A stretch of 53,734 bases of DNA from a virus (lineage: Duplodnaviria; Caudoviricetes), in IMG/VR virus record IMGVR_UViG_3300037245_000991, positions 1-53,734 of that record; one strand, written 5' to 3'. The notes beneath the pieces are model-generated. The model made no database searches. It had not been told where the DNA came from and saw nothing but the letters and a program-made list of their open reading frames with translations. Every line of letters starts with the position of its first letter. Position 1 is the stretch's first letter. This document shows, piece after piece, positions 815 to 53,734 of this stretch. The translations under genes and the position numbers were made by a program.

Positions 815-985
815 TTAATTATTACCGTCCGGTTCTTTCTTCTTCGCTTCCTTCGGTGTGTCGTCACACTTTGTTGCTTCTGTCACAACTTGCATCGACT
901 GTTGTAGCACCACATGGTCTGTTCGTGTGCCTTTGAACTCAGAACACACCTGATCCAGATTACCTAATGCTTCTTTGATTTCCAT
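815..985 (-). CDS. Small hypothetical protein, 56 aa (MEIKEALGNLDQVCSEFKG...)
   Basis: Manual translation; RBS AAGGAG; conserved in the right copy (51849..52028). Confidence 0.75.
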   Translation of the reverse strand: MEIKEALGNLDQVCSEFKGTRTDHVVLQQSMQVVTEATKCDDTPKEAKKKEPDGNN

Positions 986-1002
986 TTCTGTCTCCTTAAA
1001 AT

Positions 1003-1026
1003 GGGGAGAGCCAGATTGCTCTCCCC
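1003..1026 (-). terminator. Rho-independent terminator after the capsid genes
   Basis: GGGGAGAGC-6nt-GCTCTCCCC stem followed by ATTTT on the minus strand; stem conserved in the right copy while the loop differs. Confidence 0.7.
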
Positions 1027-1038
1027 GTGTTCATCTGA

Positions 1039-1860
1039 TTAACCGTGATCCGACATCATAAACAGCGGACCATTACCACCGATACTACCTGCGATGGCAT
1101 ACCCTGCGATTTGCGAACTATTCGCAGCTTGAACAGTAACACCTAACGCGGTATTGATGTCTGACACATTGCCATAGTCGTGCCACCAACCACTCGCATA
1201 TCCGCCAGAGTTGCCGAAACTACCCTGCGGAATAGGCCAACAAATTCCCTTGGTCTGGAGCCAGAAGTAATTGGCTGCAGCCGAAACTACGGTAGTGGGG
1301 ACACCAGCCTTTACCTGATCCCTCAGTAGAGACTCAACCATAACACTCCAGGGGTTCGCATAAACCTCTGATATGTGAGTACCAGCCACGATGGCTTGGT
1401 TAAGTTGGCCGTCTAGCTGAATGGTGAACGCTGCTCCATTATCAGCAGCGTTATTGCCAACGATTCCTCTGAGTGTGGTCTCGTAGTCTGTGGCACCGTC
1501 CATGATAATCACATATCCACCACGCAAGAAATCAGCAGTCAGGGCGTCATGTGTGCCAGCAGCAATTGTGATCTCCGTTGAACCAGCATCATGGGATGTG
1601 GCAAACGCAGTGTACCCCAAATAACCACTATCAGAGAAAGAGCACGCCCTTGACGCATAGAGAGCAGTAGCCCCAGTAGATTTGGCGTACCGATACTCCC
1701 TGCCGTCTGCCAATACAAGGCGATCACCAATGTCGAACTCCTTATCCTTGGTAGTCGTCGGGGTCACATACAAGAAATTGATATTGGGCACCTGCGTCTC
1801 GTAGATACCCTTCTTGAGAGTATCATCGAAATGCTTTGTGTAAGCAAAACCTTTAGCCAT
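1039..1860 (-). CDS. Capsid decoration/minor capsid protein (putative)
   Basis: Directly downstream of the MCP; DGREYRYAK and YFWLQTKG motifs typical of cement/decoration-like proteins. Confidence 0.6.
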   Translation of the reverse strand: MAKGFAYTKHFDDTLKKGIYETQVPNINFLYVTPTTTKDKEFDIGDRLVLADGREYRYAKSTGATALYASRACSFSDSGYLGYTAFATSHDAGSTEITIAAGTHDALTADFLRGGYVIIMDGATDYETTLRGIVGNNAADNGAAFTIQLDGQLNQAIVAGTHISEVYANPWSVMVESLLRDQVKAGVPTTVVSAAANYFWLQTKGICWPIPQGSFGNSGGYASGWWHDYGNVSDINTALGVTVQAANSSQIAGYAIAGSIGGNGPLFMMSDHG

Positions 1861-1892
1861 TTTCTTATTCCTTAAAAAGTGTTGTCACTCGA

Positions 1893-2990
1893 TTACGAAC
1901 TCGGATGTTGAGACACGAGGAAACCAGCGTTCTGTGGATCATTGCACCACATCTGATACCGGATGTAGACGAGTCGCTGCATCACAACAGCACGAGTCGG
2001 ATCAGTGCCAGTGAGTTCTTTGAAGTTCCAGTTCGAGTCAACGACCGGGAAGATGTTACTGTGGTTAAGACCGAAGATCGGGTCCGTGCCATACAGTGAC
2101 GTGCGGGCTGTGTCGAAGAGATCGACATACGCGAGCGGGATGCTCCTAAATGTGGGCGTACCCCAATGCGAATCTTCACGATACCCCATTTGATCGTCGG
2201 CCTTTGCGTAGAACGTGTTTAGTTTGGCGATCACGTTATCAGAGGTGTACATCGAAAAGTCGAGCAAACCGTTCTTGCCCTGACTCGGGTCCATTGGCAC
2301 AACAGGAGCCTGGAACCCAGTCTTGCGCACAGCACGATCCAACAGCGTGAGCAGAGACTCATCAATGTTGCCCAGATGGTCAGCGTAATAACTTGCCCAC
2401 CCAGAGTTGTTCGATGCGGACGAGTTCAAACCCGCCGTATCATAGGCTGTACCGGGGGTGCTGCCGTCGTTGTAGCGGGACTGATAACCAGTCCAACCAC
2501 CAGTACTGGAAGCAGTGCCAACTCGGAGCCAGGTGTTAATCGAGTTCGGGCTGAGGGAATCGTTTGCACCAGTAGGCCCAGTAAGCATCGAAAGATAAAC
2601 ACCTTCAAGGATGTCCTTCATCGCAGATCGGTACTGAGACGCTAGTACATCATAAATCTTCTGGGCACCGCTGTTGAGTGATGTTTCCATCGTGTTCCAA
2701 AGCATACCGCCCTTACCCTGACGCCAGTTGGCTGTATACCGCTTCTGGATGTTCACCTTTTTGAGTGTGTCCTGGTCCCAAATACCAACCAGCTTGAAGT
2801 TATCCTCTTTGTCAAGAGTGATATGACCCTCAAGATAGTCACCACTACTCTCTTTGGCCGCGTGCTGCCAGAACTTGTTGTACAACTGCCATCTTCGATA
2901 CGCGAACGTAGCCAAGGCGGGTTCTTTGGTTATGATATTCTGGAGTGTTGCATTCCAAATATCTGTTGCGAGACTAAAATCAGTAGCCAT
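1893..2990 (-). CDS. Major capsid protein
   Basis: 365 aa, after portal and scaffold, strongly conserved between the two copies, HK97-like size and C-terminus. Confidence 0.8.
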   Translation of the reverse strand: MATDFSLATDIWNATLQNIITKEPALATFAYRRWQLYNKFWQHAAKESSGDYLEGHITLDKEDNFKLVGIWDQDTLKKVNIQKRYTANWRQGKGGMLWNTMETSLNSGAQKIYDVLASQYRSAMKDILEGVYLSMLTGPTGANDSLSPNSINTWLRVGTASSTGGWTGYQSRYNDGSTPGTAYDTAGLNSSASNNSGWASYYADHLGNIDESLLTLLDRAVRKTGFQAPVVPMDPSQGKNGLLDFSMYTSDNVIAKLNTFYAKADDQMGYREDSHWGTPTFRSIPLAYVDLFDTARTSLYGTDPIFGLNHSNIFPVVDSNWNFKELTGTDPTRAVVMQRLVYIRYQMWCNDPQNAGFLVSQHPSS

Positions 2991-4307: not shown

Positions 4308-4646
4308 TTAATAATAGTCGTTATGTGAAATCATACCACGTTCTTTTTGTTGTCTCCTCTTGTCTCTAAGGTTTCCAACCCATACATCTCCTTTATCATT
4401 GTAAGTACTATTCGGGAATCGTTTTCTGAACTCATCCACTTGACCCGGTGGAACGCCCATCGCCATACTCCAATGTCCAGTGTCAGCAGCCACCTTGACA
4501 TCCCTCATTGATGCTAACTCGGATTCCATGTCTCGATTGGCCCTGCCACCACACTCACACTTTGTAGGTTTGTCCCGGTCATCCATCAGGATGCAGTCCT
4601 GGAATACAGCGTCACAATCCTCGCATCTGTAGGTGTAGGTCGGCAT
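4308..4646 (-). CDS. FmdB-family zinc-ribbon protein
   Basis: MPTYTYRCEDC...CECGG signature; common next to phage portals. Confidence 0.8.
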   Translation of the reverse strand: MPTYTYRCEDCDAVFQDCILMDDRDKPTKCECGGRANRDMESELASMRDVKVAADTGHWSMAMGVPPGQVDEFRKRFPNSTYNDKGDVWVGNLRDKRRQQKERGMISHNDYY

Positions 4647-4864
4647 TACTCTACCACCGTGCTGTCTACGTGGATCGGTGGGCCACTGTCAGTGATCTGA
4701 AGAACACGAGGACCATCCTCAGCGTCTCTGATCTCAATCTGATCCAGCATGTGTTGTCGCATCTGGACTGCTCGTTCCTGCTCTGCGAACTGGGTACACC
4801 AAAACACTACTTCCGCGTCACTCATCTCGTTTACTTGTTCTTTGGTTAGTTCATCTGCGTTCAT
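4646..4864 (-). CDS. Hypothetical protein
   Basis: RBS AGGAG; translationally coupled. Confidence 0.6.
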   Translation of the reverse strand: MNADELTKEQVNEMSDAEVVFWCTQFAEQERAVQMRQHMLDQIEIRDAEDGPRVLQITDSGPPIHVDSTVVE

Positions 4865-4875
4865 TTCTCTGTCTC

Positions 4876-5016
4876 CTATTCAACAAGTGAATACTTTTTA
4901 ATCATGGCCTCTGACGCCGCCGATAAATCAGGCGACAAAATGTCTTTCATTGGCTTCACCCACTCATCATAAAACTTTTGTAATCTTGCTTTCTTTTGTT
5001 CAAAAGTCACTTCCAT
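4876..5016 (-). CDS. Small hypothetical protein (MEVTFEQ...)
   Basis: Start moved to 5016, behind a GGAGACAGAGAA leader. Confidence 0.5.
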   Translation of the reverse strand: MEVTFEQKKARLQKFYDEWVKPMKDILSPDLSAASEAMIKKYSLVE

Positions 5017-5036
5017 TTCTCTGTCTCCAAATTCAA

Positions 5037-5414
5037 TTACGTTGTTCCAATTACCCACACCTCAAACACCGGCGTCTCCGCCGCACCATTGTTCTTCACA
5101 TGTGTCACCCCGGCTGGATTCGTTATCACCGCACACGGCCCTCCGGCCTTGATCGTCATATCAACATCAAACGAAGCGGCATAATCAAGATCAATGTCGA
5201 GATCGAGAGTGACGGCCCGGATGATGATGCACGTCGCTACGGCCACGTCACCCTGGTCAATGACCTCGTCGGCATCAGCCGTGGTTAGCGTCCGGTACTG
5301 TCGTCCAGTCGTGGCTGTCGGGGTCGTCCCGTCTGTCCCTTTGTCGAGAAACGATATATCCTGGCCGAGTCCTTGTAGCTCGGCGATAACTGATACGTCC
5401 AGAGTGGCGGCCAT
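5037..5414 (-). CDS. Hypothetical virion-associated beta-rich protein
   Basis: Coupled to the portal stop; beta-strand composition. Confidence 0.6.
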   Translation of the reverse strand: MAATLDVSVIAELQGLGQDISFLDKGTDGTTPTATTGRQYRTLTTADADEVIDQGDVAVATCIIIRAVTLDLDIDLDYAASFDVDMTIKAGGPCAVITNPAGVTHVKNNGAAETPVFEVWVIGTT

Positions 5415-44744: not shown

Positions 44745-45268
44745 TATCGACTTGCCTGTGCAGCCATCGCCTGTATCAATTGATTATAATCAGGGTACGG
44801 GTCTTCGATTCGTTCCACGAATCCAGCCTTGCCTAACTTGAGTTCAGATGTCCTCTGTTGAATGATGTCTTCAAGTTTCAACCGGGACAGTGCAGCCTGG
44901 TTCTCGGCCTGAACTGGGATACTGGCAGCAGTGGTCGTACCATATAGTCCAGACGAGACTAACTGCTGTGTGCCAGCCCCGACCGCTCGGGTTTTGGATT
45001 GTTCGATGTCAGCGAGGCCAGCAGTTCGGAATGCTCCCTGGCCCTGACCGATCAGTTGGTCGTAGATTCCTCTGATCTCGGTCTCGCGTTTGACGTTGGC
45101 TTTCAATGCACCCGCTTCTCTTTTCTGAGTGTCCGCGTAGAGGGATGCGTAGTTGATACCGCCACCAGAAGTGGTTCTGGCTGGACCTCGACCAGGCATA
45201 TATCCAAACAATGCTTTTTTGTTTATTACTCCAAAACTACCGCCGCCGAATGCAGTTCCTAATGCCAT
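44744..45268 (-). CDS. Small ejection/DNA transfer protein (putative)
   Basis: Start reassigned to MALGTAFGG (TAATG coupling); QQLVSSGLYGTT motif; follows the nozzle gene. Confidence 0.55.
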   Translation of the reverse strand: MALGTAFGGGSFGVINKKALFGYMPGRGPARTTSGGGINYASLYADTQKREAGALKANVKRETEIRGIYDQLIGQGQGAFRTAGLADIEQSKTRAVGAGTQQLVSSGLYGTTTAASIPVQAENQAALSRLKLEDIIQQRTSELKLGKAGFVERIEDPYPDYNQLIQAMAAQASR

Positions 45269-46815
45269 TATCGAACCCTTCCCGATTTCTGAGTGCCATA
45301 GAGCACTCGATTGATTGACCACGTTTCAGAGGCCGTGGAGTTATAGAGTTTCAGCCCCCAATATGCCCCCTTCATTCTTGGTTTTATTTTGCTCTTTCGT
45401 CCTGGACCCGACAGGGTATCAGAAGAAAAGGCAGTGTCTCCATCCACGATGGCTTCGAGAACAGTCTCCGCATCATCGCCTTTGTGGAGTTCGTATGTCA
45501 CTCCGTCGGTATCTCCAGCGTCTCCGCCAGAAGCTCCACCCGCCAGATCGAACACCAGTTCGGTCAGCTTACCGTTCTGATCGGCGATCTCGGACAGTAT
45601 ACCGTCTCGGCCTATACGTGCGGCCAACGGTGTGATTGGATACGTCACATAAGACGAGATCGCTTGATCTGATCCGCCGATGTCGTCGTCCTTGGCCGTC
45701 GTAAGGAACTTCCTGATGTATCCGTCCTTACACCCGACAAGGAGATCAGCAAAAGTAGTGTCGTTCGCGTCGTAGTAGAAAATCGAGTATGGCCCACACT
45801 CGTTGGGATAGGATTCGGGATAGAACCCCTTGGTCTTGAAACTGTAGAAGTAGTTCGAGTTCACTCCTGTTGCCAATACGGTGATGCACACCACGATTCC
45901 GTGCCGTTTCTTGTCATACCCCATTGTGATCCGGTGGGTTGTAGGATCAGCGGCTTCGTCGTCGATGATGTCTGGGAGGACCATCTCGGTCAAGTTCCTG
46001 ATCCCAGAGAAATCTGACTTGAGTTCATATAGACCACCCGACCCCCAGAAGTATAGATTACGGGAGTCATCGAAGCACCATGAGTTTGCTCCGAACATCC
46101 CGGTCGTATCACTGAGGTTGTCGAGTGAACCACCAGCCACCGGGTCGCCCCGGAGAACCCAGAGTGTCGAGGCGCAACCGAAGATCAGGTAATCGTCGTG
46201 GAAGGAGATCAGGGAGCGAACGATGTCTGGACACTGCCCGGCGTCGGCGTTGTTGCCTGCGACGGCAGACATAGGATCGTCTGCTCCATAGAGCCAATTG
46301 AATGGATCAGCGAGTTTCGACATGAACCATTGATTCGGATACTGTGGGTTGCCAGATAGAACCAAGCGACCTCGGTAGACTGTGATGAGGTATGCCTTCT
46401 CGGGCATCGCCCCAGATGTGCCACCAGGGTACACAGTCCAGTCGTACCAATGTGGCTGACTGGCCACAGCAGAGGGAACTCGTGTCGCGGGGTCCATGCC
46501 GCCACCTGACAGAGTGTATCCGCCAGTGGTAACGAACGTACCTGACGTGGTGTACCCATATATCTCGGTCTTGGCTGTATTCACGAAGTCCACGATCATG
46601 GTAGCTGTGGATGTAGCCTGAGTTACGATGGACCCCCGTGTGGGGGCAGTATCCAAGGTCGTGATCGTGAGTTTGGTGTTGATGAAGTCTGCCACCTTGA
46701 GGTTAGCCCCGTTGGCTATGAACACCTTCTGGAAGGCGGAGGCCATTGTGAGTTGGTCTGATGTGTCTATGTCATCTATGCTGTCTGTCAACACTACTTG
46801 AGTACCTGCTGCCAT
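45268..46815 (-). CDS. Tail nozzle/tubular protein B-like beta-propeller (main part)
   Basis: YRGRLVLSG...WFMS, DYLIFG...LWVLRGDP and LYFW repeats typical of P22 gp10/T7 gp12-like proteins; start at MAAGT by TAATG coupling. Confidence 0.75.
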   Translation of the reverse strand: MAAGTQVVLTDSIDDIDTSDQLTMASAFQKVFIANGANLKVADFINTKLTITTLDTAPTRGSIVTQATSTATMIVDFVNTAKTEIYGYTTSGTFVTTGGYTLSGGGMDPATRVPSAVASQPHWYDWTVYPGGTSGAMPEKAYLITVYRGRLVLSGNPQYPNQWFMSKLADPFNWLYGADDPMSAVAGNNADAGQCPDIVRSLISFHDDYLIFGCASTLWVLRGDPVAGGSLDNLSDTTGMFGANSWCFDDSRNLYFWGSGGLYELKSDFSGIRNLTEMVLPDIIDDEAADPTTHRITMGYDKKRHGIVVCITVLATGVNSNYFYSFKTKGFYPESYPNECGPYSIFYYDANDTTFADLLVGCKDGYIRKFLTTAKDDDIGGSDQAISSYVTYPITPLAARIGRDGILSEIADQNGKLTELVFDLAGGASGGDAGDTDGVTYELHKGDDAETVLEAIVDGDTAFSSDTLSGPGRKSKIKPRMKGAYWGLKLYNSTASETWSINRVLYGTQKSGRVR

Positions 46816-47534
46816 TAGATTGCCTCGTACCAAATTTGATTATTGCCCGCCACTACCAACCGTTTTATCACGGCGGTTGGTTGGCTTATGTCAACTGTCT
46901 CTGACCCTAGCGATGAGGGGCCGACTGTACTCTGGGCTGCTATCGTCCCCGACAATTCGACGCCACCCCCTATTGACAAATTAGCATTTTCAACTACACT
47001 TTGTGCTGCAATGGTTCCAGATAATTCTGTGTAGTCAACTCCCGCTGAACTTGAAGCATATATACCTCTCACCCATGTTGCTTCGTTACTTCCAGCATCC
47101 CACGGATTAGGCAAAGCAGTGCTTGGAGTATGTGTACTAACACGGTCGGCAGTAATACTATAATCTGTTTCGGTAATTGTGTCAGTGTCGTCAACTTGTA
47201 TTGCTATCCAATAAGTTGTTCCTGGTGTAACTGCCCAATTGACTGAAACAATTTTCCAACCAGCATCAGTACCTTTTGCATTGACATTGTCTACAAAAAG
47301 ACGGGCGTCTGGTTTGTCATTTCCAACGTGATGACTATAAAGACCAACTTCAAAATTAGCCTCTTCTGTGTTATTATTACACCACCAGCCTATTTCTAAA
47401 ATAGTTGTAACACCGCCAGGAACCACATCTTTTACGGCCATATCATAGGCGTCTATAATAGTAAGTGTTCCACCTGGGTCAGCAACCGGAGGTGTAGCAA
47501 CAAAACCACAATTTGTTCCTAATACGAGTGCCAT
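46815..47534 (-). CDS. Tail appendage protein B ending in KRLVVAGNNQIWYEAI
   Basis: Beta-sandwich N-domain (YWIA), two ELSGTIAAQS repeats, shared C-terminal motif. Confidence 0.7.
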   Translation of the reverse strand: MALVLGTNCGFVATPPVADPGGTLTIIDAYDMAVKDVVPGGVTTILEIGWWCNNNTEEANFEVGLYSHHVGNDKPDARLFVDNVNAKGTDAGWKIVSVNWAVTPGTTYWIAIQVDDTDTITETDYSITADRVSTHTPSTALPNPWDAGSNEATWVRGIYASSSAGVDYTELSGTIAAQSVVENANLSIGGGVELSGTIAAQSTVGPSSLGSETVDISQPTAVIKRLVVAGNNQIWYEAI

Positions 47535-47535
47535 A

Positions 47536-47931
47536 TTAGTCCAGCGTTATATCTAGTTCACCAATCCCAAATCTTGGAACTTGTGGAGATGTTATGACAC
47601 GAGAAGCGTCAAGAGTCCCGTGTGTCAACATATTTCCCCCAGATGAAGCGTCTGCCAAAAAGAAATGTGTCACAGTTCCCCACGCCCCGGACGCTTCTGG
47701 GAAAGTAACCACAGCAGCATTCGCAGTCGCTCCCCCAGACGCGGCATCCCAATCAGAACCTGATGTGGCAACACGAGCGTAGTTATTACCACTCGGTTCA
47801 GCGAGACCACTTGCATCATCAGTCGGGTCGGCAGTACTCAATCCTATATAAGCGGTCGGCTTGGTGAACGAAGTCTTGCCCGTGACGTGGTCAAGCACTT
47901 TGTTTTCTGTGTAGTTGTTGAAACTTCCCAT
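47536..47931 (-). CDS. Conserved small tail-fibre-associated protein
   Basis: ENKVLDH...YIGLSTADP...NYARV...VTFPEASGAWGTVTHF motif widespread in phage tail modules. Confidence 0.8.
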   Translation of the reverse strand: MGSFNNYTENKVLDHVTGKTSFTKPTAYIGLSTADPTDDASGLAEPSGNNYARVATSGSDWDAASGGATANAAVVTFPEASGAWGTVTHFFLADASSGGNMLTHGTLDASRVITSPQVPRFGIGELDITLD

Positions 47932-48945
47932 TTATATATCCTCATACCAAATTCGATTTTCGGCTGCGGCTACTAGTTTGCGATTTGTTGACACAAAATT
48001 GGCTTCGTATCCAGCGGCCAAGTACACGTAGTCAGTGTTCTCCACACCCACACCAGGAGGATCGCCATACGTACCGTCGTCTTGGATCAGGAGACGATAG
48101 TATCGTCCTGTTGTCGGGTAGAAATAGTTCACACCAACAGGGGTAAATCGGATTGTGACAAATGACCATTCATCTCCAGTTGTGGTTCCAACTACATTCG
48201 TGGAGTCAACACGCCAGTATCGTGTTGACAGATAGGAGTATGGGGCACCATCAGTGATTCCAGTTACAGTAAACGAGGTTCCTGCCTGGGCTGAGGATAC
48301 GAGGGAGAGACTCCCAGACGTCGTCCCGTAGTACACGTTGTATGTATCAGCACCACCACCGTCTGTCCAGGCTATCGTTGCTTGATCGAGGGTGACAGAC
48401 GTGTTGGCGTTAGTCGGCAAGGGAGTGTTGGCTTTAGTGGGGGCACCTTCAGTAGCCCTGATGCTTATTGTTATTGTTTCTGGTGAAGCCCCTGATAATC
48501 TACCTAATTTAAGATTTACTGCTGTGATTGTGTATGATGATGTAGCAGTAAAAGTTTGTGCTGTCCACTGTGTATCATAAGAAATAGAAGAAGCCCCTGC
48601 CCAAACTGGGTTGTAGCTGTCTCTCAACACATTAAAACCAGCACTAGTATATGTTTTGAACCAACAATCCTCGGCATCGCCCGACCAAGAAGAACCACTA
48701 TTACTACTGAGAAATCTTTGTCCACCAGCATAGTCACCTGGCGATTTCATTTGACACAAGCAGGCATTACTAAACCCTACGCCAGCAGATCGAATAACTA
48801 TCGCATATACAACACCAGAGGTCAATGCAGTTCCTGCGCCAAAAGTTATTTTAGTATCCTGGGGTTCTGCTGGAGCTTGTGGTAAACCGTTACCGGCTGT
48901 TGTACCACTCGCTAAATCTCCGCCTGTTGGATCACCTGCTGCCAT
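47932..48945 (-). CDS. Tail appendage protein A ending in RKLVAAAENRIWYEDI
   Basis: AQTFT beta-sandwich plus FN3-like YNVYYGT...YWRVD...WSF domain; shared C-terminal motif. Confidence 0.7.
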   Translation of the reverse strand: MAAGDPTGGDLASGTTAGNGLPQAPAEPQDTKITFGAGTALTSGVVYAIVIRSAGVGFSNACLCQMKSPGDYAGGQRFLSSNSGSSWSGDAEDCWFKTYTSAGFNVLRDSYNPVWAGASSISYDTQWTAQTFTATSSYTITAVNLKLGRLSGASPETITISIRATEGAPTKANTPLPTNANTSVTLDQATIAWTDGGGADTYNVYYGTTSGSLSLVSSAQAGTSFTVTGITDGAPYSYLSTRYWRVDSTNVVGTTTGDEWSFVTIRFTPVGVNYFYPTTGRYYRLLIQDDGTYGDPPGVGVENTDYVYLAAGYEANFVSTNRKLVAAAENRIWYEDI

Positions 48946-48957
48946 TCCGCCACTCTC

Positions 48958-49185
48958 CTACAATATCGCTGCCACGACGACCATCGCAACGACAGGCTGT
49001 TCACTTGAACCGATCTGAGTCCCCGCCCCCCATTTCTCAAGTCCCGGCCTTTGTCCCAGCCGGAGTCTTCGTTCGAGGGTGTCGATTGGTCTCACGTTGT
49101 TCGTGTACCCAGACGTAGTGGGCGGTTCCTTATCGACAGGAAGCCCCTTTGATACACCTTTGATCGGGGGAGTGAGTTCTAAAAT
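48958..49185 (-). CDS. Unannotated 75-aa ORF resembling a nozzle N-terminus, non-canonical ATT start
   Basis: Manual translation ILELTPPIKGVSKGLP...NNVRPIDTLERRLRLGQRPGLEKW...; AGGAG 7 nt upstream of ATT; fills the gap exactly. Confidence 0.65.
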   Translation of the reverse strand: MLELTPPIKGVSKGLPVDKEPPTTSGYTNNVRPIDTLERRLRLGQRPGLEKWGAGTQIGSSEQPVVAMVVVAAIL

Positions 49186-49187
49186 GA

Positions 49188-49691
49188 TTATTCTCCTAAT
49201 GAAAAAGTATAAACGTTTCTAATGTGGGATAAAAACTGTGAGACAGTCAGTTGGTGTTTCATCATATTACATGTAGAGCAGCACGGCACACAATTTTCCA
49301 TTGTGTATCCCAGAGAATTGTCGGTTCGATCTACCCCGTTAAATTTCAGACCAAAATCTCGTGCGTACCCACGATACTTGTTTGTTGGCTCGATGCCACA
49401 ATAGAAACAGTTTCTACGAGTCAAGTCATCAAATTGTTTTCGGGTTAAATCAAAAGTGTAATGCCTATTGTGAGCCGCTTTGCTATAACTACGAAACAAC
49501 TGTTTCCTTGCTGCTTGATGATCTGGCAATTTGCGAGTGCCGCAATTGCCCGGCTGTAATCCGAGCTTTTTTGCCTTGCTTTGAACCGCCGCGTAACTGC
49601 GATTCAATAACTTTGCCGTTTCAGCGAGTCCCAGGGGCTTGTATTTTTCTTCTAACAGTTCAACTTCCTTTTTAGACCACGGCGATCCCAT
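49188..49691 (-). CDS. HNH endonuclease with N-terminal Myb/HTH-like domain
   Basis: WSKKEVELL...LNRSYAAVQSKA; CFYCG...GVDRTDNSLGY...NCVPCCSTCNMMK. Confidence 0.88.
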   Translation of the reverse strand: MGSPWSKKEVELLEEKYKPLGLAETAKLLNRSYAAVQSKAKKLGLQPGNCGTRKLPDHQAARKQLFRSYSKAAHNRHYTFDLTRKQFDDLTRRNCFYCGIEPTNKYRGYARDFGLKFNGVDRTDNSLGYTMENCVPCCSTCNMMKHQLTVSQFLSHIRNVYTFSLGE

Positions 49692-49921
49692 CAGTCTTTC
49701 ATCCCTATCGCTTTTCTTTCTTTGCGTCTGAGATGTGCCGTGGCCGTAGTACTACCTGTGGCACCACCATAAGATGTTCTGCGACCACTACGTTCCCAGT
49801 GATACCGTGTCATTGGCTGTCGATCAGTACCAGTTCGTTTATTGTATTTGGATACATAGTCCAGATACTCTTTGTTGGTTTTGGTTTTTCTTTTAAGGCG
49901 TTTGGTTCGTACTGTAGCCAT
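49691..49921 (-). CDS. Small very basic protein
   Basis: K/R-rich 76 aa, coupled at both ends. Confidence 0.6.
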   Translation of the reverse strand: MATVRTKRLKRKTKTNKEYLDYVSKYNKRTGTDRQPMTRYHWERSGRRTSYGGATGSTTATAHLRRKERKAIGMKD

Positions 49922-50993: not shown

Positions 50994-51785
50994 TTATCCT
51001 TGACTGTAAATATCACTCTGATCCACATAAGCGAATCGTGTACACGGTCCACCTCCAGCATTCTCATCCAATCCGAGGCCCTTCCTTGTATAAAGGTTGC
51101 CTATCGTGCCTGTGTCTGCTTTGCCTGAATCAAACCGGATCGCGGTCTGAATCAACCGAGCTGCTTCCTGTTGGTGATGTGTGGACGTGTTGTCCTCTTC
51201 CTGGGTCTCGGCCACGGCCAGACATGATTCCAGGATCGCTTCGATGGCCATAATCCCACCGATCATCAGATCAGTGGTTGCCGCCAGCTTAACAGGATCA
51301 ATACGGTAGAAGCAGCTAAACGTATACTTCTGACTGGGGTTTGGGTAGAGCCACAATTCGTAAGTAGTCCCGATCTCGATGTCATATCGCTGGGGGATGA
51401 CGGCGTAGTATAAGGGCCATCCACTTGTGATCGTGTAGCTCCTCATCTCCTTGATCTGCTGTGCGCTTCGTTTGCGTGGGGGTCGCAGTGCTTGGCTGTC
51501 GTTGTGTGAGAGATCAGTGAGCATATCAGAGAAGTCCACAGGAAGCGAATATTTCCACTGTCCATTGACCGTGCTGAACGACCAATACTGCTCGATGAAT
51601 GACCACTCATGGGGTGTACCATATTTCATATCCATCGGATAGAGGAACTGGCGGATGCCACGATCAACGAGGTTTTTACACGTCGTTAGGTTGGTCCCTG
51701 TTGGGGCCGTACCATTGGGTGTAAGAGCAAGGAAGTTAGAGACTCGCGTGTATAGGTCAGCGTATGAGAGTGTGAGTTTGGCCAT
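50994..51785 (-). CDS. Head-tail adaptor (tubular protein A/gp4-like)
   Basis: HEWSF, YSLPVDF and LWLYPNP...Y motifs of podovirus adaptors; start at MAKLT behind AAGGA. Confidence 0.75.
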   Translation of the reverse strand: MAKLTLSYADLYTRVSNFLALTPNGTAPTGTNLTTCKNLVDRGIRQFLYPMDMKYGTPHEWSFIEQYWSFSTVNGQWKYSLPVDFSDMLTDLSHNDSQALRPPRKRSAQQIKEMRSYTITSGWPLYYAVIPQRYDIEIGTTYELWLYPNPSQKYTFSCFYRIDPVKLAATTDLMIGGIMAIEAILESCLAVAETQEEDNTSTHHQQEAARLIQTAIRFDSGKADTGTIGNLYTRKGLGLDENAGGGPCTRFAYVDQSDIYSQG

Positions 51786-51848
51786 TGTCATTCCTTATCT
51801 TGATGCCAGCCGGGTAGTCCGCACCGGCCAACATCAGGAGACAGAGTC

Positions 51849-52028
51849 TTATTTCTTGTTGCCGTCTGATTCTTTTTTCTTGGGTTTGGCTTCTTTCGCA
51901 GTGTTATCCTGAACCGTAGCTGCTGTCACTACCTGCATCGACTGTTGTAATACCACATGATCTGTTCGTGTGCCTTTGAACTCAGAACACACCTGATCCA
52001 GATTACCTAATGCTTCTTTAACTTCCAT
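51849..52028 (-). CDS. Small hypothetical protein, 59 aa (right copy)
   Basis: MEVKEALGNLDQVCSEFKG..., homolog of 815..985. Confidence 0.75.
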   Translation of the reverse strand: MEVKEALGNLDQVCSEFKGTRTDHVVLQQSMQVVTAATVQDNTAKEAKPKKKESDGNKK

Positions 52029-52045
52029 TTCCTGTCTCCTTAAAA

Positions 52046-52070
52046 TGGGGAGAGCCGAATTGCTCTCCCC
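52046..52070 (-). terminator. Rho-independent terminator (right copy)
   Basis: GGGGAGAGC-loop-GCTCTCCCC. Confidence 0.7.
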
Positions 52071-52082
52071 GTGTTCATCTGA

Positions 52083-52904
52083 TTAACCGTGGTCCGCCAT
52101 CATAAACAGAGGACCGTTGCCGCCAATACTGCCCGCTATGGCGTATCCAGCGATCTGTGAAGAGTTCGCGGCGACTACAGAGACGCCCAACGCAGTTTCT
52201 ATATCAGAAACGTTACCGTAATCGTGCCACCAACCACTCGCCAATCCACCGGAATTGCCGAAACTACCCTGCGGAATAGGCCAACAGATTCCCTTGGTCT
52301 GTAGCCAGAAGTAATTGGCCGCAGCCGAAACTATGGTAGTGGGAACACCAGCCTTTACCTGATCTCGCAAGAGGGACTCAACCATAACACTCCAGGGGTT
52401 CTGATAAACCTCTGATATATGAGTACCTGCCACGATGGCCTGGTTAAGTTGGCCATCCAACTGGATGGTGAACGCTGCCCCATTATCAGCAGCGTTATTA
52501 CCAACGATTCCTCTGAGTGTAGTGTTGTAGTCCGTAGCACCATCCATGATAATCACATACCCACCACGCAAGAAATCAGCAGTCAGGGCATCGTGTGTGC
52601 CAGCCGCAATCGTAATTTCAGTTGAGCCAGCATCGTGGGATGTGGCGAACGCAGTGTACCCCAAATAACCACTGTCAGAGAAAGAGCACGCCCTTGACGC
52701 ATAGAGAGCAGTAGCCCCAGTAGATTTGGCGTACCGATACTCCCTGCCGTCTGCCAATACAAGGCGATCACCAATGTCGAACTCCTTATCCTTGGTAGTC
52801 GTAGGAGTCACATACAAGAAGTTAATATTGGGCACCTGTGTTTCGTAAATACCCTTCTTGAGGGTATCGTCAAAGTGCTTTGTGTAAGCAAAACCTTTAG
52901 CCAT
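52083..52904 (-). CDS. Capsid decoration/minor capsid protein (right copy)
   Basis: 273 aa; 8 substitutions vs 1039..1860 by my count. Confidence 0.6.
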   Translation of the reverse strand: MAKGFAYTKHFDDTLKKGIYETQVPNINFLYVTPTTTKDKEFDIGDRLVLADGREYRYAKSTGATALYASRACSFSDSGYLGYTAFATSHDAGSTEITIAAGTHDALTADFLRGGYVIIMDGATDYNTTLRGIVGNNAADNGAAFTIQLDGQLNQAIVAGTHISEVYQNPWSVMVESLLRDQVKAGVPTTIVSAAANYFWLQTKGICWPIPQGSFGNSGGLASGWWHDYGNVSDIETALGVSVVAANSSQIAGYAIAGSIGGNGPLFMMADHG

Positions 52905-52936
52905 TTTTCTATTCCTTAAAAAGTGTTGTCAATCGC

Positions 52937-53734
52937 TTACGAACTCGGGTGTTGGCTGACCAAGAACCCGGCGTTCTGTGGGTCGTTGCACCACATCTGA
53001 TACCGGATGTAGATGAGTCGCTGCATCACAACGGCACGAGTCGGATCAGTACCAGTGAGTTCTTTGAAGTTCCAGTTTGAGTCAACAATCGGGAAGAGGT
53101 TGCTATGGTTTATCCCGAAAATCGGATCAGTGCCATACAGTGACGTGCGGGCCTCATCAAAGAGATCGACATACGCGAGTGGGATGCTCCTAAACGTGGG
53201 CGTACCCCAATGCGAATCTTCACGATACCCCATTTGATCGTCGGCCTTCGCGTAGAACGAATTCAATTTAGCGATCACGTTATCAGAGGTGTACATCGAG
53301 AAGTCGAGCAAACCGTTCTTGCCCTGGCTCGGGTCCATCGGCACAACAGGAGCCTGGAACCCGGTCTTGCGCACAGCACGATCTAACAGCGTGAGCAGAG
53401 ACTCATCAATGTTGCCAAGGTGGTCGGCGTAGTAACTCGCCCACCCAGTGTTGTTCGACGCAGACGAGTTCAACCCTGCTGTATCATAAGCCGTGCCGGG
53501 GGTGCTGCCGTCATTGTAACGAGACTGATAACCAGTCCAACCACCAGTACTTGAGGCAGTGCCAACTCGGAGCCAAGTGTTAAGCGAGTTCGGGCTGAGA
53601 GAATCGTTTGCACTAGTAGGCCCAGTAACCATCGAAAGATAAACACCTTCGAGGATGTCCTTCATCGCAGAGCGATACTGAGACGCGAGTACGTCGTAAA
53701 TCTTCTGGGCACCACTGTTGAGCGACGTTTCCAT
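52937..53734 (-). CDS. Major capsid protein, 3' part (right copy, truncated by window edge)
   Basis: Matches residues 101-365 of 1893..2990 with about 10 conservative substitutions. Confidence 0.8.
   Translation of the reverse strand: METSLNSGAQKIYDVLASQYRSAMKDILEGVYLSMVTGPTSANDSLSPNSLNTWLRVGTASSTGGWTGYQSRYNDGSTPGTAYDTAGLNSSASNNTGWASYYADHLGNIDESLLTLLDRAVRKTGFQAPVVPMDPSQGKNGLLDFSMYTSDNVIAKLNSFYAKADDQMGYREDSHWGTPTFRSIPLAYVDLFDEARTSLYGTDPIFGINHSNLFPIVDSNWNFKELTGTDPTRAVVMQRLIYIRYQMWCNDPQNAGFLVSQHPSS

Follow-up and report, generated by a model that had tools for sequence, protein, structure and literature searches.

Two genes in the tail module of an uncultured virus (Duplodnaviria; Caudoviricetes) encode proteins that share nothing except their last 22 or so residues, of which the final 16 are nearly the same, which raises the question of what such a common end is for. 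The stretch concerned, IMG/VR record IMGVR_UViG_3300037245_000991 (hereafter the window: the whole 53,734 nucleotides that were analyzed), makes up an entire 53.7-kb virus record. On its minus strand lie P1, a 337-amino acid appendage protein (47932..48945); P2, a 239-amino acid rope-like protein (46815..47534); and the 515-amino acid body of the nozzle, or tail hub (45268..46815), which starts MAAGTQ... and has neither the N-terminal piece nor the hairpin of intact nozzles. On the same strand, a 75-amino acid piece (the N-piece; 48958..49185) is homologous to the N-terminus of single-chain nozzles, and the end of P2 corresponds to their N-terminal hairpin. The answer we prefer, with a probability of roughly 0.7, is that this is a podophage nozzle assembled from separately translated pieces, for which the hairpin-ended P2 and P1 act as donors. 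We infer the docking, the slot, the rope function, the stoichiometry and any role in host binding.

P1 ends in the hairpin RKLVAAAENRIWYEDI (47935..47982, minus strand) and P2 in KRLVVAGNNQIWYEAI (46818..46865, minus strand). These 16-mers score 52 against each other (ungapped BLOSUM62). Of the 19,306 pairs of C-termini from window open reading frames (ORFs), the unrelated pair that comes next reaches 22; two pairs scoring 86 stem from the duplicated window ends. BLASTP found no similarity between P1 and P2 beyond the shared end, and in a profile-profile comparison only the last 23 columns aligned (probability 94%, E-value 1.2e-7). The near-identical ends on otherwise dissimilar proteins that the original prediction described are thus real, and genes ending in the hairpin recur in related genomes. 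Among the matches listed, the hairpin forms the C-terminus of 113 of 120 P1 homologues and is present in at least 54 of 120 P2 homologues. Position 9 distinguishes two types of hairpin, with Ala in 91% of 108 P1-type ends (A-type, as in P1) and Gly in 98% of 55 P2-type ends (G-type, as in P2). A resemblance of the hairpin to internal blade strands has no support in the sequence: a scan of the body with a position matrix of the hairpin gave a best score of -2.0, versus a 95th percentile of 3.8 for shuffled sequence.

Relatives with a single-chain nozzle place the hairpin directly before the body. A scan of viral contigs with the window body as query gave 31 loci (the first locus set), and a profile search of 1.84 billion representatives gave 3212 nozzle family proteins. 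In the best 150 of these 3212, whose architectures were read, 110 consist of N-domain, hairpin and body, 14 of leader, hairpin and body, 17 begin at the body and 9 are fragments; the N-piece is fused at the N-terminus in only four of the 110 (P0035, P0057, P0112 and P0145). Type-A relatives, found in many of the 31 loci and showing the pattern MAVSIxxxxxIKRLVxAGNNxIWYE-DIDV-AAGTxxEL..DIDTSDQL, join the tail of P2 and the head of the window body in one chain. Loci L018 and L021 encode a domain of 176-316 residues, the hairpin and the body as a single protein, and the P0112 chain runs from N-piece through an 8-residue linker to hairpin and body. The single chain that had been predicted for the pieces therefore exists and, judged by this colinearity, one nozzle fold is divided over two or more polypeptides in the window. 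Since P1 and P2 end in a hairpin that is absent from the body, they probably plug into it.

The nozzle fold itself was matched through two relatives, L001 and P0112, rather than through the window body, which is 85-86% identical to the L001 nozzle, its closest relative along the entire length. The L001 model matches the nozzle chains of LME-1, A4, SU10, Kp9 and GP4 (E 8e-11 to 1e-8). The P0112 model has a mean predicted local distance difference test score (pLDDT) of 84.7 and a predicted template modeling score (pTM) of 0.84, and in Foldseek it matches the Pa223 tail hub 9nwi_Y (E 3.5e-16, template modeling score by target 0.70) as well as VP1 8zkk_O (0.65), P22 gp10 8eap_D (0.63) and T7 gp12. 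Together the two models match the fold of the single-chain nozzles of Pa223 (gp59), VP1 (gp16), P22 (gp10), T7 (gp12) and SU10; sequence searches of the PDB found no similarity between the window nozzle and the solved ones. In the P0112 model the hairpin comprises strands 87-95 and 98-104, both with pLDDT above 90, as is the last strand of the N-piece (residues 70-79).

These architectures suggest how the pieces could fit together. Intact relatives have the N-piece, an optional variable domain, a two-strand hairpin (KRLVxAGNNxIWYE) and a beta-propeller body in one chain; in the window the N-piece and the body are encoded separately, with the hairpin at the C-terminus of P2. That hairpin would re-join the body by beta-strand complementation and so tether P2 to the nozzle. 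P2 would act as a rope, with a distal domain, two repeats each holding a dimer of a fiber protein of the gp80 type, and then the anchor. The paralogous hairpin of P1 would most likely be a second donor, competing against P2 for a common slot on bodies that lack a hairpin, and one nozzle hexamer could carry a mixture of P1 and P2 appendages. The principle resembles donor-strand complementation in chaperone-usher pili, in which a second polypeptide contributes the strand that an unfinished beta fold is missing, and donors can compete; the proteins and the setting are unrelated, a two-strand hairpin would be donated here, and no exchange is implied.

Alternatively, the shared end might be kept for nucleic-acid or expression reasons, either as ribosome-binding site and translational coupling or as a recombination joint, rather than for docking. 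The TAA of P2 does overlap the ATG of the nozzle body as TAATG and, as had also been claimed, a GAGG resembling a ribosome-binding site lies within the Tyr-Glu codons, 7 nt ahead of the next ATG, at the ends of both the P1 and the P2 gene. In the first locus set, 18 of the 31 distinct terminal hairpins have this GAGG, and architecture often changes at the hairpin/body junction. However, some 16-22 residues are conserved as protein with varying codons (GAA replaces GAG in 7 of the 31 terminal cases), the motif is equally conserved inside the 110 fused proteins, where no gene starts, and it forms a confident hairpin in the P0112 fold. Between the two copies in the window, the DNA agrees at 22 of the last 27 nt and at 35 of 69 over 23 codons, synonymous sites differ (Leu CTA/TTG, Tyr TAT/TAC, Ala GCA/GCG) and no exact run is longer than 9 nt. 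This identity is what the shared residues give, and on these codon comparisons protein conservation explains all of it. The two hairpin ends bear no sign of gene conversion or of a DNA joint, contrary to the suggestion that they could serve for cassette exchange, and we regard retention for such reasons as very improbable. A -1 frameshift joining P2 to the body, which would restore the fused spacing, was likewise discarded, there being no slippery sequence at GCA ATC TAA.

The split could also be an assembly or sequencing error, or the mark of a decaying gene. The capsid/portal region is repeated at the ends of the record (873..2690 and 51916..53734) with only 89.8% DNA identity over 1821 bases, so two strains are merged somewhere in the contig; the contig probably wraps round a circularly permuted genome, joining two strain variants, and the true genome length would then probably be about 51 kb. 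The N-piece, moreover, is without a normal start. Against an error, the TAATG-type split is found in six of the seven type-B loci of the first locus set, 20 split loci were found in the wider survey and 17 of the family representatives are split. All pieces are conserved at 40-89% identity with no frame breaks, and a separate assembly of the run that holds the stretch is identical. In that run, the single public one containing the stretch and labeled marine sediment metagenome, the Logan contigs are letter-identical and gap-free over 46600..49300, an agreement that is not independent because the run is probably the source sample of the record. An assembly error was named beforehand as a possible refutation; of the explanations considered here, error or decay is the most remote.

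Repeated change is also seen on a tree of 147 nozzle bodies, on which the split state requires 17 changes, 15 or more of which well-supported branches make unavoidable, with frequent fission or fusion at the hairpin/body junction. The window is sister to the type-A locus L001 (support 99). The cut is therefore recurrent and, in the window lineage, recent. Two further loci have the nozzle frame broken into two ORFs (L029, 5917..7501; L028, 4894..7394), which may come from a frameshift or a sequencing error, or may be one more split.

The 20 aligned loci have the N-piece as an ORF of its own, and it is conserved among them. In the window its 75-residue frame is open from end to end and carries the residues first described, as predicted. 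The frame lacks an ATG, GTG or TTG start, beginning instead with ATT (AGGAG lies 7 nt upstream), and so the ORF listing gives only a 45-amino acid GTG ORF. Sequence comparison of the N-piece with the PDB gave only chance nanobody matches (E 0.13 or worse), and a local Pfam search assigned neither the N-piece nor the fused chains to a nozzle family; one 80-amino acid cluster in the ESM Atlas, 14% of whose members carry PF25675 Phage_nozzle, is a lead only. A detachable N-terminal nozzle piece is plausible given that the adaptor-binding domain of Pa223 gp59 is bipartite, consisting of residues 2-46 and C-terminal residues 403-512 according to a preprint (10.1101/2025.06.11.659172). Immediately upstream of the N-piece, separating it from a basic 76-amino acid ORF, and overlooked by the original prediction, is an HNH endonuclease gene (49188..49691, minus strand; phrog_1035 endonuclease VII, E 1.5e-19, and further HNH families), which stands outside the nozzle system. 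Its site holds no ORF in close relatives such as L001 and L003, and the window N-piece has ATT where relatives have ATG. The gene resembles a homing endonuclease of the free-standing kind, and its insertion seems to have deprived the N-piece of a start codon.

Also overlooked was the gene between P1 and P2 (131 amino acids, 47536..47931, minus strand), which encodes a gp80-type fiber monomer. Its residues 4-129 match positions 2-128 of the 128 in PF23140, 'Podophage GP4 fiber I protein gp80' (E 4.1e-39; 134.3 bits versus a cut-off of 27), and it also matches PDB 8jou_a (E 1.1e-11). P2 has a distal beta domain (residues 1 to about 165) followed, just before the hairpin, by two tandem repeats of 23 residues (ELSGTIAAQS..., residues 168-216; 46887..47033, minus strand), proposed as docking strands for gp80-type dimers. 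Given these repeats before the hairpin and the gp80-type neighbor, P2 looks like the ropes of phages GP4 and A1002. P2 homologues have 1-3 repeats and P2-type proteins beside gp80 genes have 2-5. Besides the window, repeats were found in distinct P2-type proteins of seven loci (L004, L005, L007 with five, L020, L022, L025 and L030), in which a gp80-type gene is present or the contig ends upstream; in L019, a locus with no gp80 gene, the P2-type protein has no repeats. The P2 repeats matched no solved chain by sequence and P2 as a whole gave a weak CpcN match in which no stretch passed alone, so the rope reading comes from architecture and neighborhood.

In unrelated contigs (L034, L037, L044 and L046), neighbors of gp80-type genes carry 6-25 repeats with a period of 20-23. 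These proteins (L034 5512..7656, L037 4..771, L044 391..3930, L046 4910..6586), which consist mostly of tandem repeats, are possibly the ropes of long chain-like fibers. The L037 protein matched only antibody chains in the PDB, and the other gp80-type loci examined gave no repeats with the pattern used. In L040-L045, at about 4501..5286, the gp80-type gene encodes about 260 amino acids, roughly two monomer lengths, and its product may be a covalent dimer. As for the P2 domain, its ESM Atlas clusters are unnamed and viral, with DUF4082 and lectin-like matches at 0.89-0.90 as leads only. About half of the proteins with the P2 N-domain (P2 homologues P0307-P0364) end otherwise than in the hairpin, for example in HYYQKLL... 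or in KINIGDxWK repeats, which indicates that other phage groups combine the domain with anchors of another kind.

P1, with 282 homologues, is built of a beta-rich N-domain, an FN3 domain (48154..48393, minus strand; profile search versus the PDB, 3mpc_A, E 3.5e-4), a conserved module of about 55 residues directly before the hairpin, and the hairpin itself. Its N-domain matches the N-extension of 40 of the 110 fused nozzles, which makes P1 look like a domain and hairpin that have separated together from a fused nozzle. In fused nozzles such as P0012 and P0020 the two halves of this domain (profile positions 4-104 and 107-165) occur in reversed order, sometimes in tandem, and their arrangement hints at circular permutation, or at a cut that has shifted within a tandem domain; a locus search with P0012 alone gave 3 loci. 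In both P1 and P2 the conserved part is C-terminal and the N-domains vary between relatives. A classical fiber of the T7 gp17 or SU10 gp12 type has an N-terminal anchor and a variable C-terminus, and neither P1 nor P2 is such a fiber.

Whether P1 and P2 would use one slot or two can be approached through the codon at the hairpin/body junction. After the addition of 80 further loci, the survey comprised 115 loci and 96 distinct nozzle ORFs, among which 74 distinct nozzle genes have the hairpin in cis and an N-piece gene upstream. With a donor gene upstream, the junction codon is ATG or GTG in 28 of 31 genes and another codon in 3, two of these misses being column shifts with GTG one codon later; with no donor gene upstream, it is ATG or GTG in 1 of 43 genes and another codon in 42. 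A junction ATG is present in both fused genes with a donor (L063 and L104). In the first locus set, the Val at the body start of cis-hairpin nozzles is GTG in 13 of 13 cases, with Met in one more, and GTG makes up only 22% of the Val codons in those genes. Most cis-hairpin relatives have GAGG or GGAGG 6-9 nt before the junction codon, and the junction GTG is, on these sequence signals, a candidate internal start for a second, shorter nozzle isoform. In L001 (4173..4187) the arrangement is GAGGA, 7 nt, then GTG, and L003, L007, L010, L013, L026, L029, L031 and others are alike.

This pattern suggests that the junction codon is kept by selection for an internal start, which would yield a hairpin-less body wherever a trans donor exists. 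Such a body favors a single slot, filled in cis or by alternative donors, for which the conserved junction GTG or ATG wherever a donor gene exists would be indirect support. Alternatively, the G-type hairpin may fill the nozzle slot and the A-type hairpin of P1 dock elsewhere without competition, be it on the same sheet as two more strands, on the unpaired N-piece or on the 12-fold adaptor, and each subunit would then carry both P1 and P2. At position 9, Ala does mark the upstream donors and Gly the hairpins next to the body, both in the loci and across the wider families, and most non-fused genomes have exactly two hairpins. The N-piece being nearly always a separate gene would, moreover, allow a different copy number, and in SU10 the nozzle platform touches two adaptor subunits (PMC9509320). 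However, two sites would leave the conserved junction codon and GAGG of donor-bearing genomes without a reason, and the second site would stand empty in fused-nozzle genomes, 42 of 44 of which have one hairpin and no donor. Loci L007 and L031, which have three hairpins (A, A and G), would need a third site or competition in any case. We consider separate sites unlikely, though far less so than either an expression-related or an artifactual origin of the shared end.

The single-slot arrangement allows a broader and more tentative proposal, to which we assign somewhat less than even odds: that this uncultured phage family builds mosaic nozzles, with one slot per subunit that any protein bearing the tag of about 16 residues could fill. 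Each of the six body subunits would offer one hairpin slot, and the genome would set the mixture. By the route in the window, the body would be encoded without a hairpin, and the rope fiber P2 and the FN3 appendage P1 would compete for it; by the route in type-A relatives, a self-filled long form would be accompanied by a hairpin-less short form made from the internal GTG. If this is true, the tag would be a portable C-terminal docking module that displays receptor-binding domains on a podophage tail.

For the window's own pieces, complex prediction of the body with the N-piece, P2 190-239 and P1 266-337, with P1 as partner, gave an interaction prediction score from aligned errors (ipSAE) of 0.00 in both runs; these were made without controls and speak neither for binding nor against it. 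Several observations weigh against the assembly of the nozzle from pieces with P2 and P1 as donors. The L001 nozzle model is only moderate (pLDDT 66.3), and the place of the hairpin, in the first propeller blade or the N-terminal platform, may be the platform. The N-piece has no canonical start in the window. No solved chain backs the rope reading by sequence, and P2 has only two repeats. The Ala and Gly classes at position 9 are not predicted by a single slot and would fit two sites or paralogy, and the three-hairpin loci count here as well. Lastly, the link between donor gene and start codon comprises few independent events: the naive Fisher p is 6e-16, but with just 6 changes on the tree for one trait and 8 for the other, there are 4-6 independent contrasts (4 starred, 6 with all branches), about 3 of them concordant, so a sign test (median p 0.25) cannot reach significance.

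Among known systems, the one in the window is closest to the split nozzle of the Pseudomonas podophage A1002 and the chain-like fiber of the Ralstonia podophage GP4. As described in a 2026 report (PMC13730344), A1002 has a nozzle-rope, gp39, whose C-terminus completes a truncated nozzle-base, gp42, by added beta-strands, with genes in the order rope, fiber monomers, base; in GP4, gp80 dimers are strung on a separately encoded rope (PDB 8jou). A1002 resembles the window in dividing the nozzle fold over two polypeptides and in encoding gp80-fold monomers between rope and base; the window may also share its rope-like protein with repeated docking sites and a C-terminus that completes the base. 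The likeness to gp39 and gp42 is one of description, not of their sequences. The same account has A1002 donating about 150 C-terminal residues (platform-C and two partial blades) from a rope with 11 docking sites, compared with a hairpin of only about 16-22 residues and two repeats in the window, where the nozzle is in three pieces, the N-piece also being separate, and a second, non-rope putative donor, P1, is present. GP4 shares with the window a gp80 family member beside a separate protein with short repeats, the repeats of P2 having no solved relative by sequence. Single-chain nozzles are one polypeptide, and their fibers attach by the fiber N-terminus; in the window the conserved, putative anchor sits at the C-terminus of the appendage. 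The literature searches made returned only the A1002 paper for a split nozzle, and nothing for a hairpin-only split or a C-terminal hairpin tag. What is new relative to A1002 and GP4 is the other cut points, the tag of about 16 residues, the second putative donor and the wide occurrence in environmental viromes.

The nozzle body lies downstream of, and on the same strand as, a tail adaptor gene of the SU10 type (50994..51791, minus strand; Pfam PF24175 SU10_adaptor, E 5.1e-11), whose product is the partner ring of the nozzle, and in single-chain podophages, too, the nozzle gene follows the adaptor gene. After the adaptor gene, also on the minus strand, come two small ORFs and a basic 76-amino acid ORF (49691..49921). 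The INPHARED phage collection contains no relative of the window DNA, the nozzle or P1, and no RNA dataset is listed as containing the stretch.

Tail appendages decide which targets a phage attaches to. Known podophage fibers dock by their N-termini, and in SU10 they do so to the adaptor or to nozzle loops (PMC9509320). In the window the putative anchor is a short hairpin at the C-terminus, which in origin is a piece of the nozzle that has come away from it. Across more than 3000 family proteins from environmental viromes, evolution has repeatedly cut and re-joined the gene at just this position. If docking is true, the single split-nozzle example from 2026 would be extended to a widespread and more minimal form, and a tag of about 16 residues would be defined for attaching domains to a phage tail. 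Docking would also imply a testable, programmed heterogeneity of nozzle subunits, in which an internal start gives the acceptor isoform.

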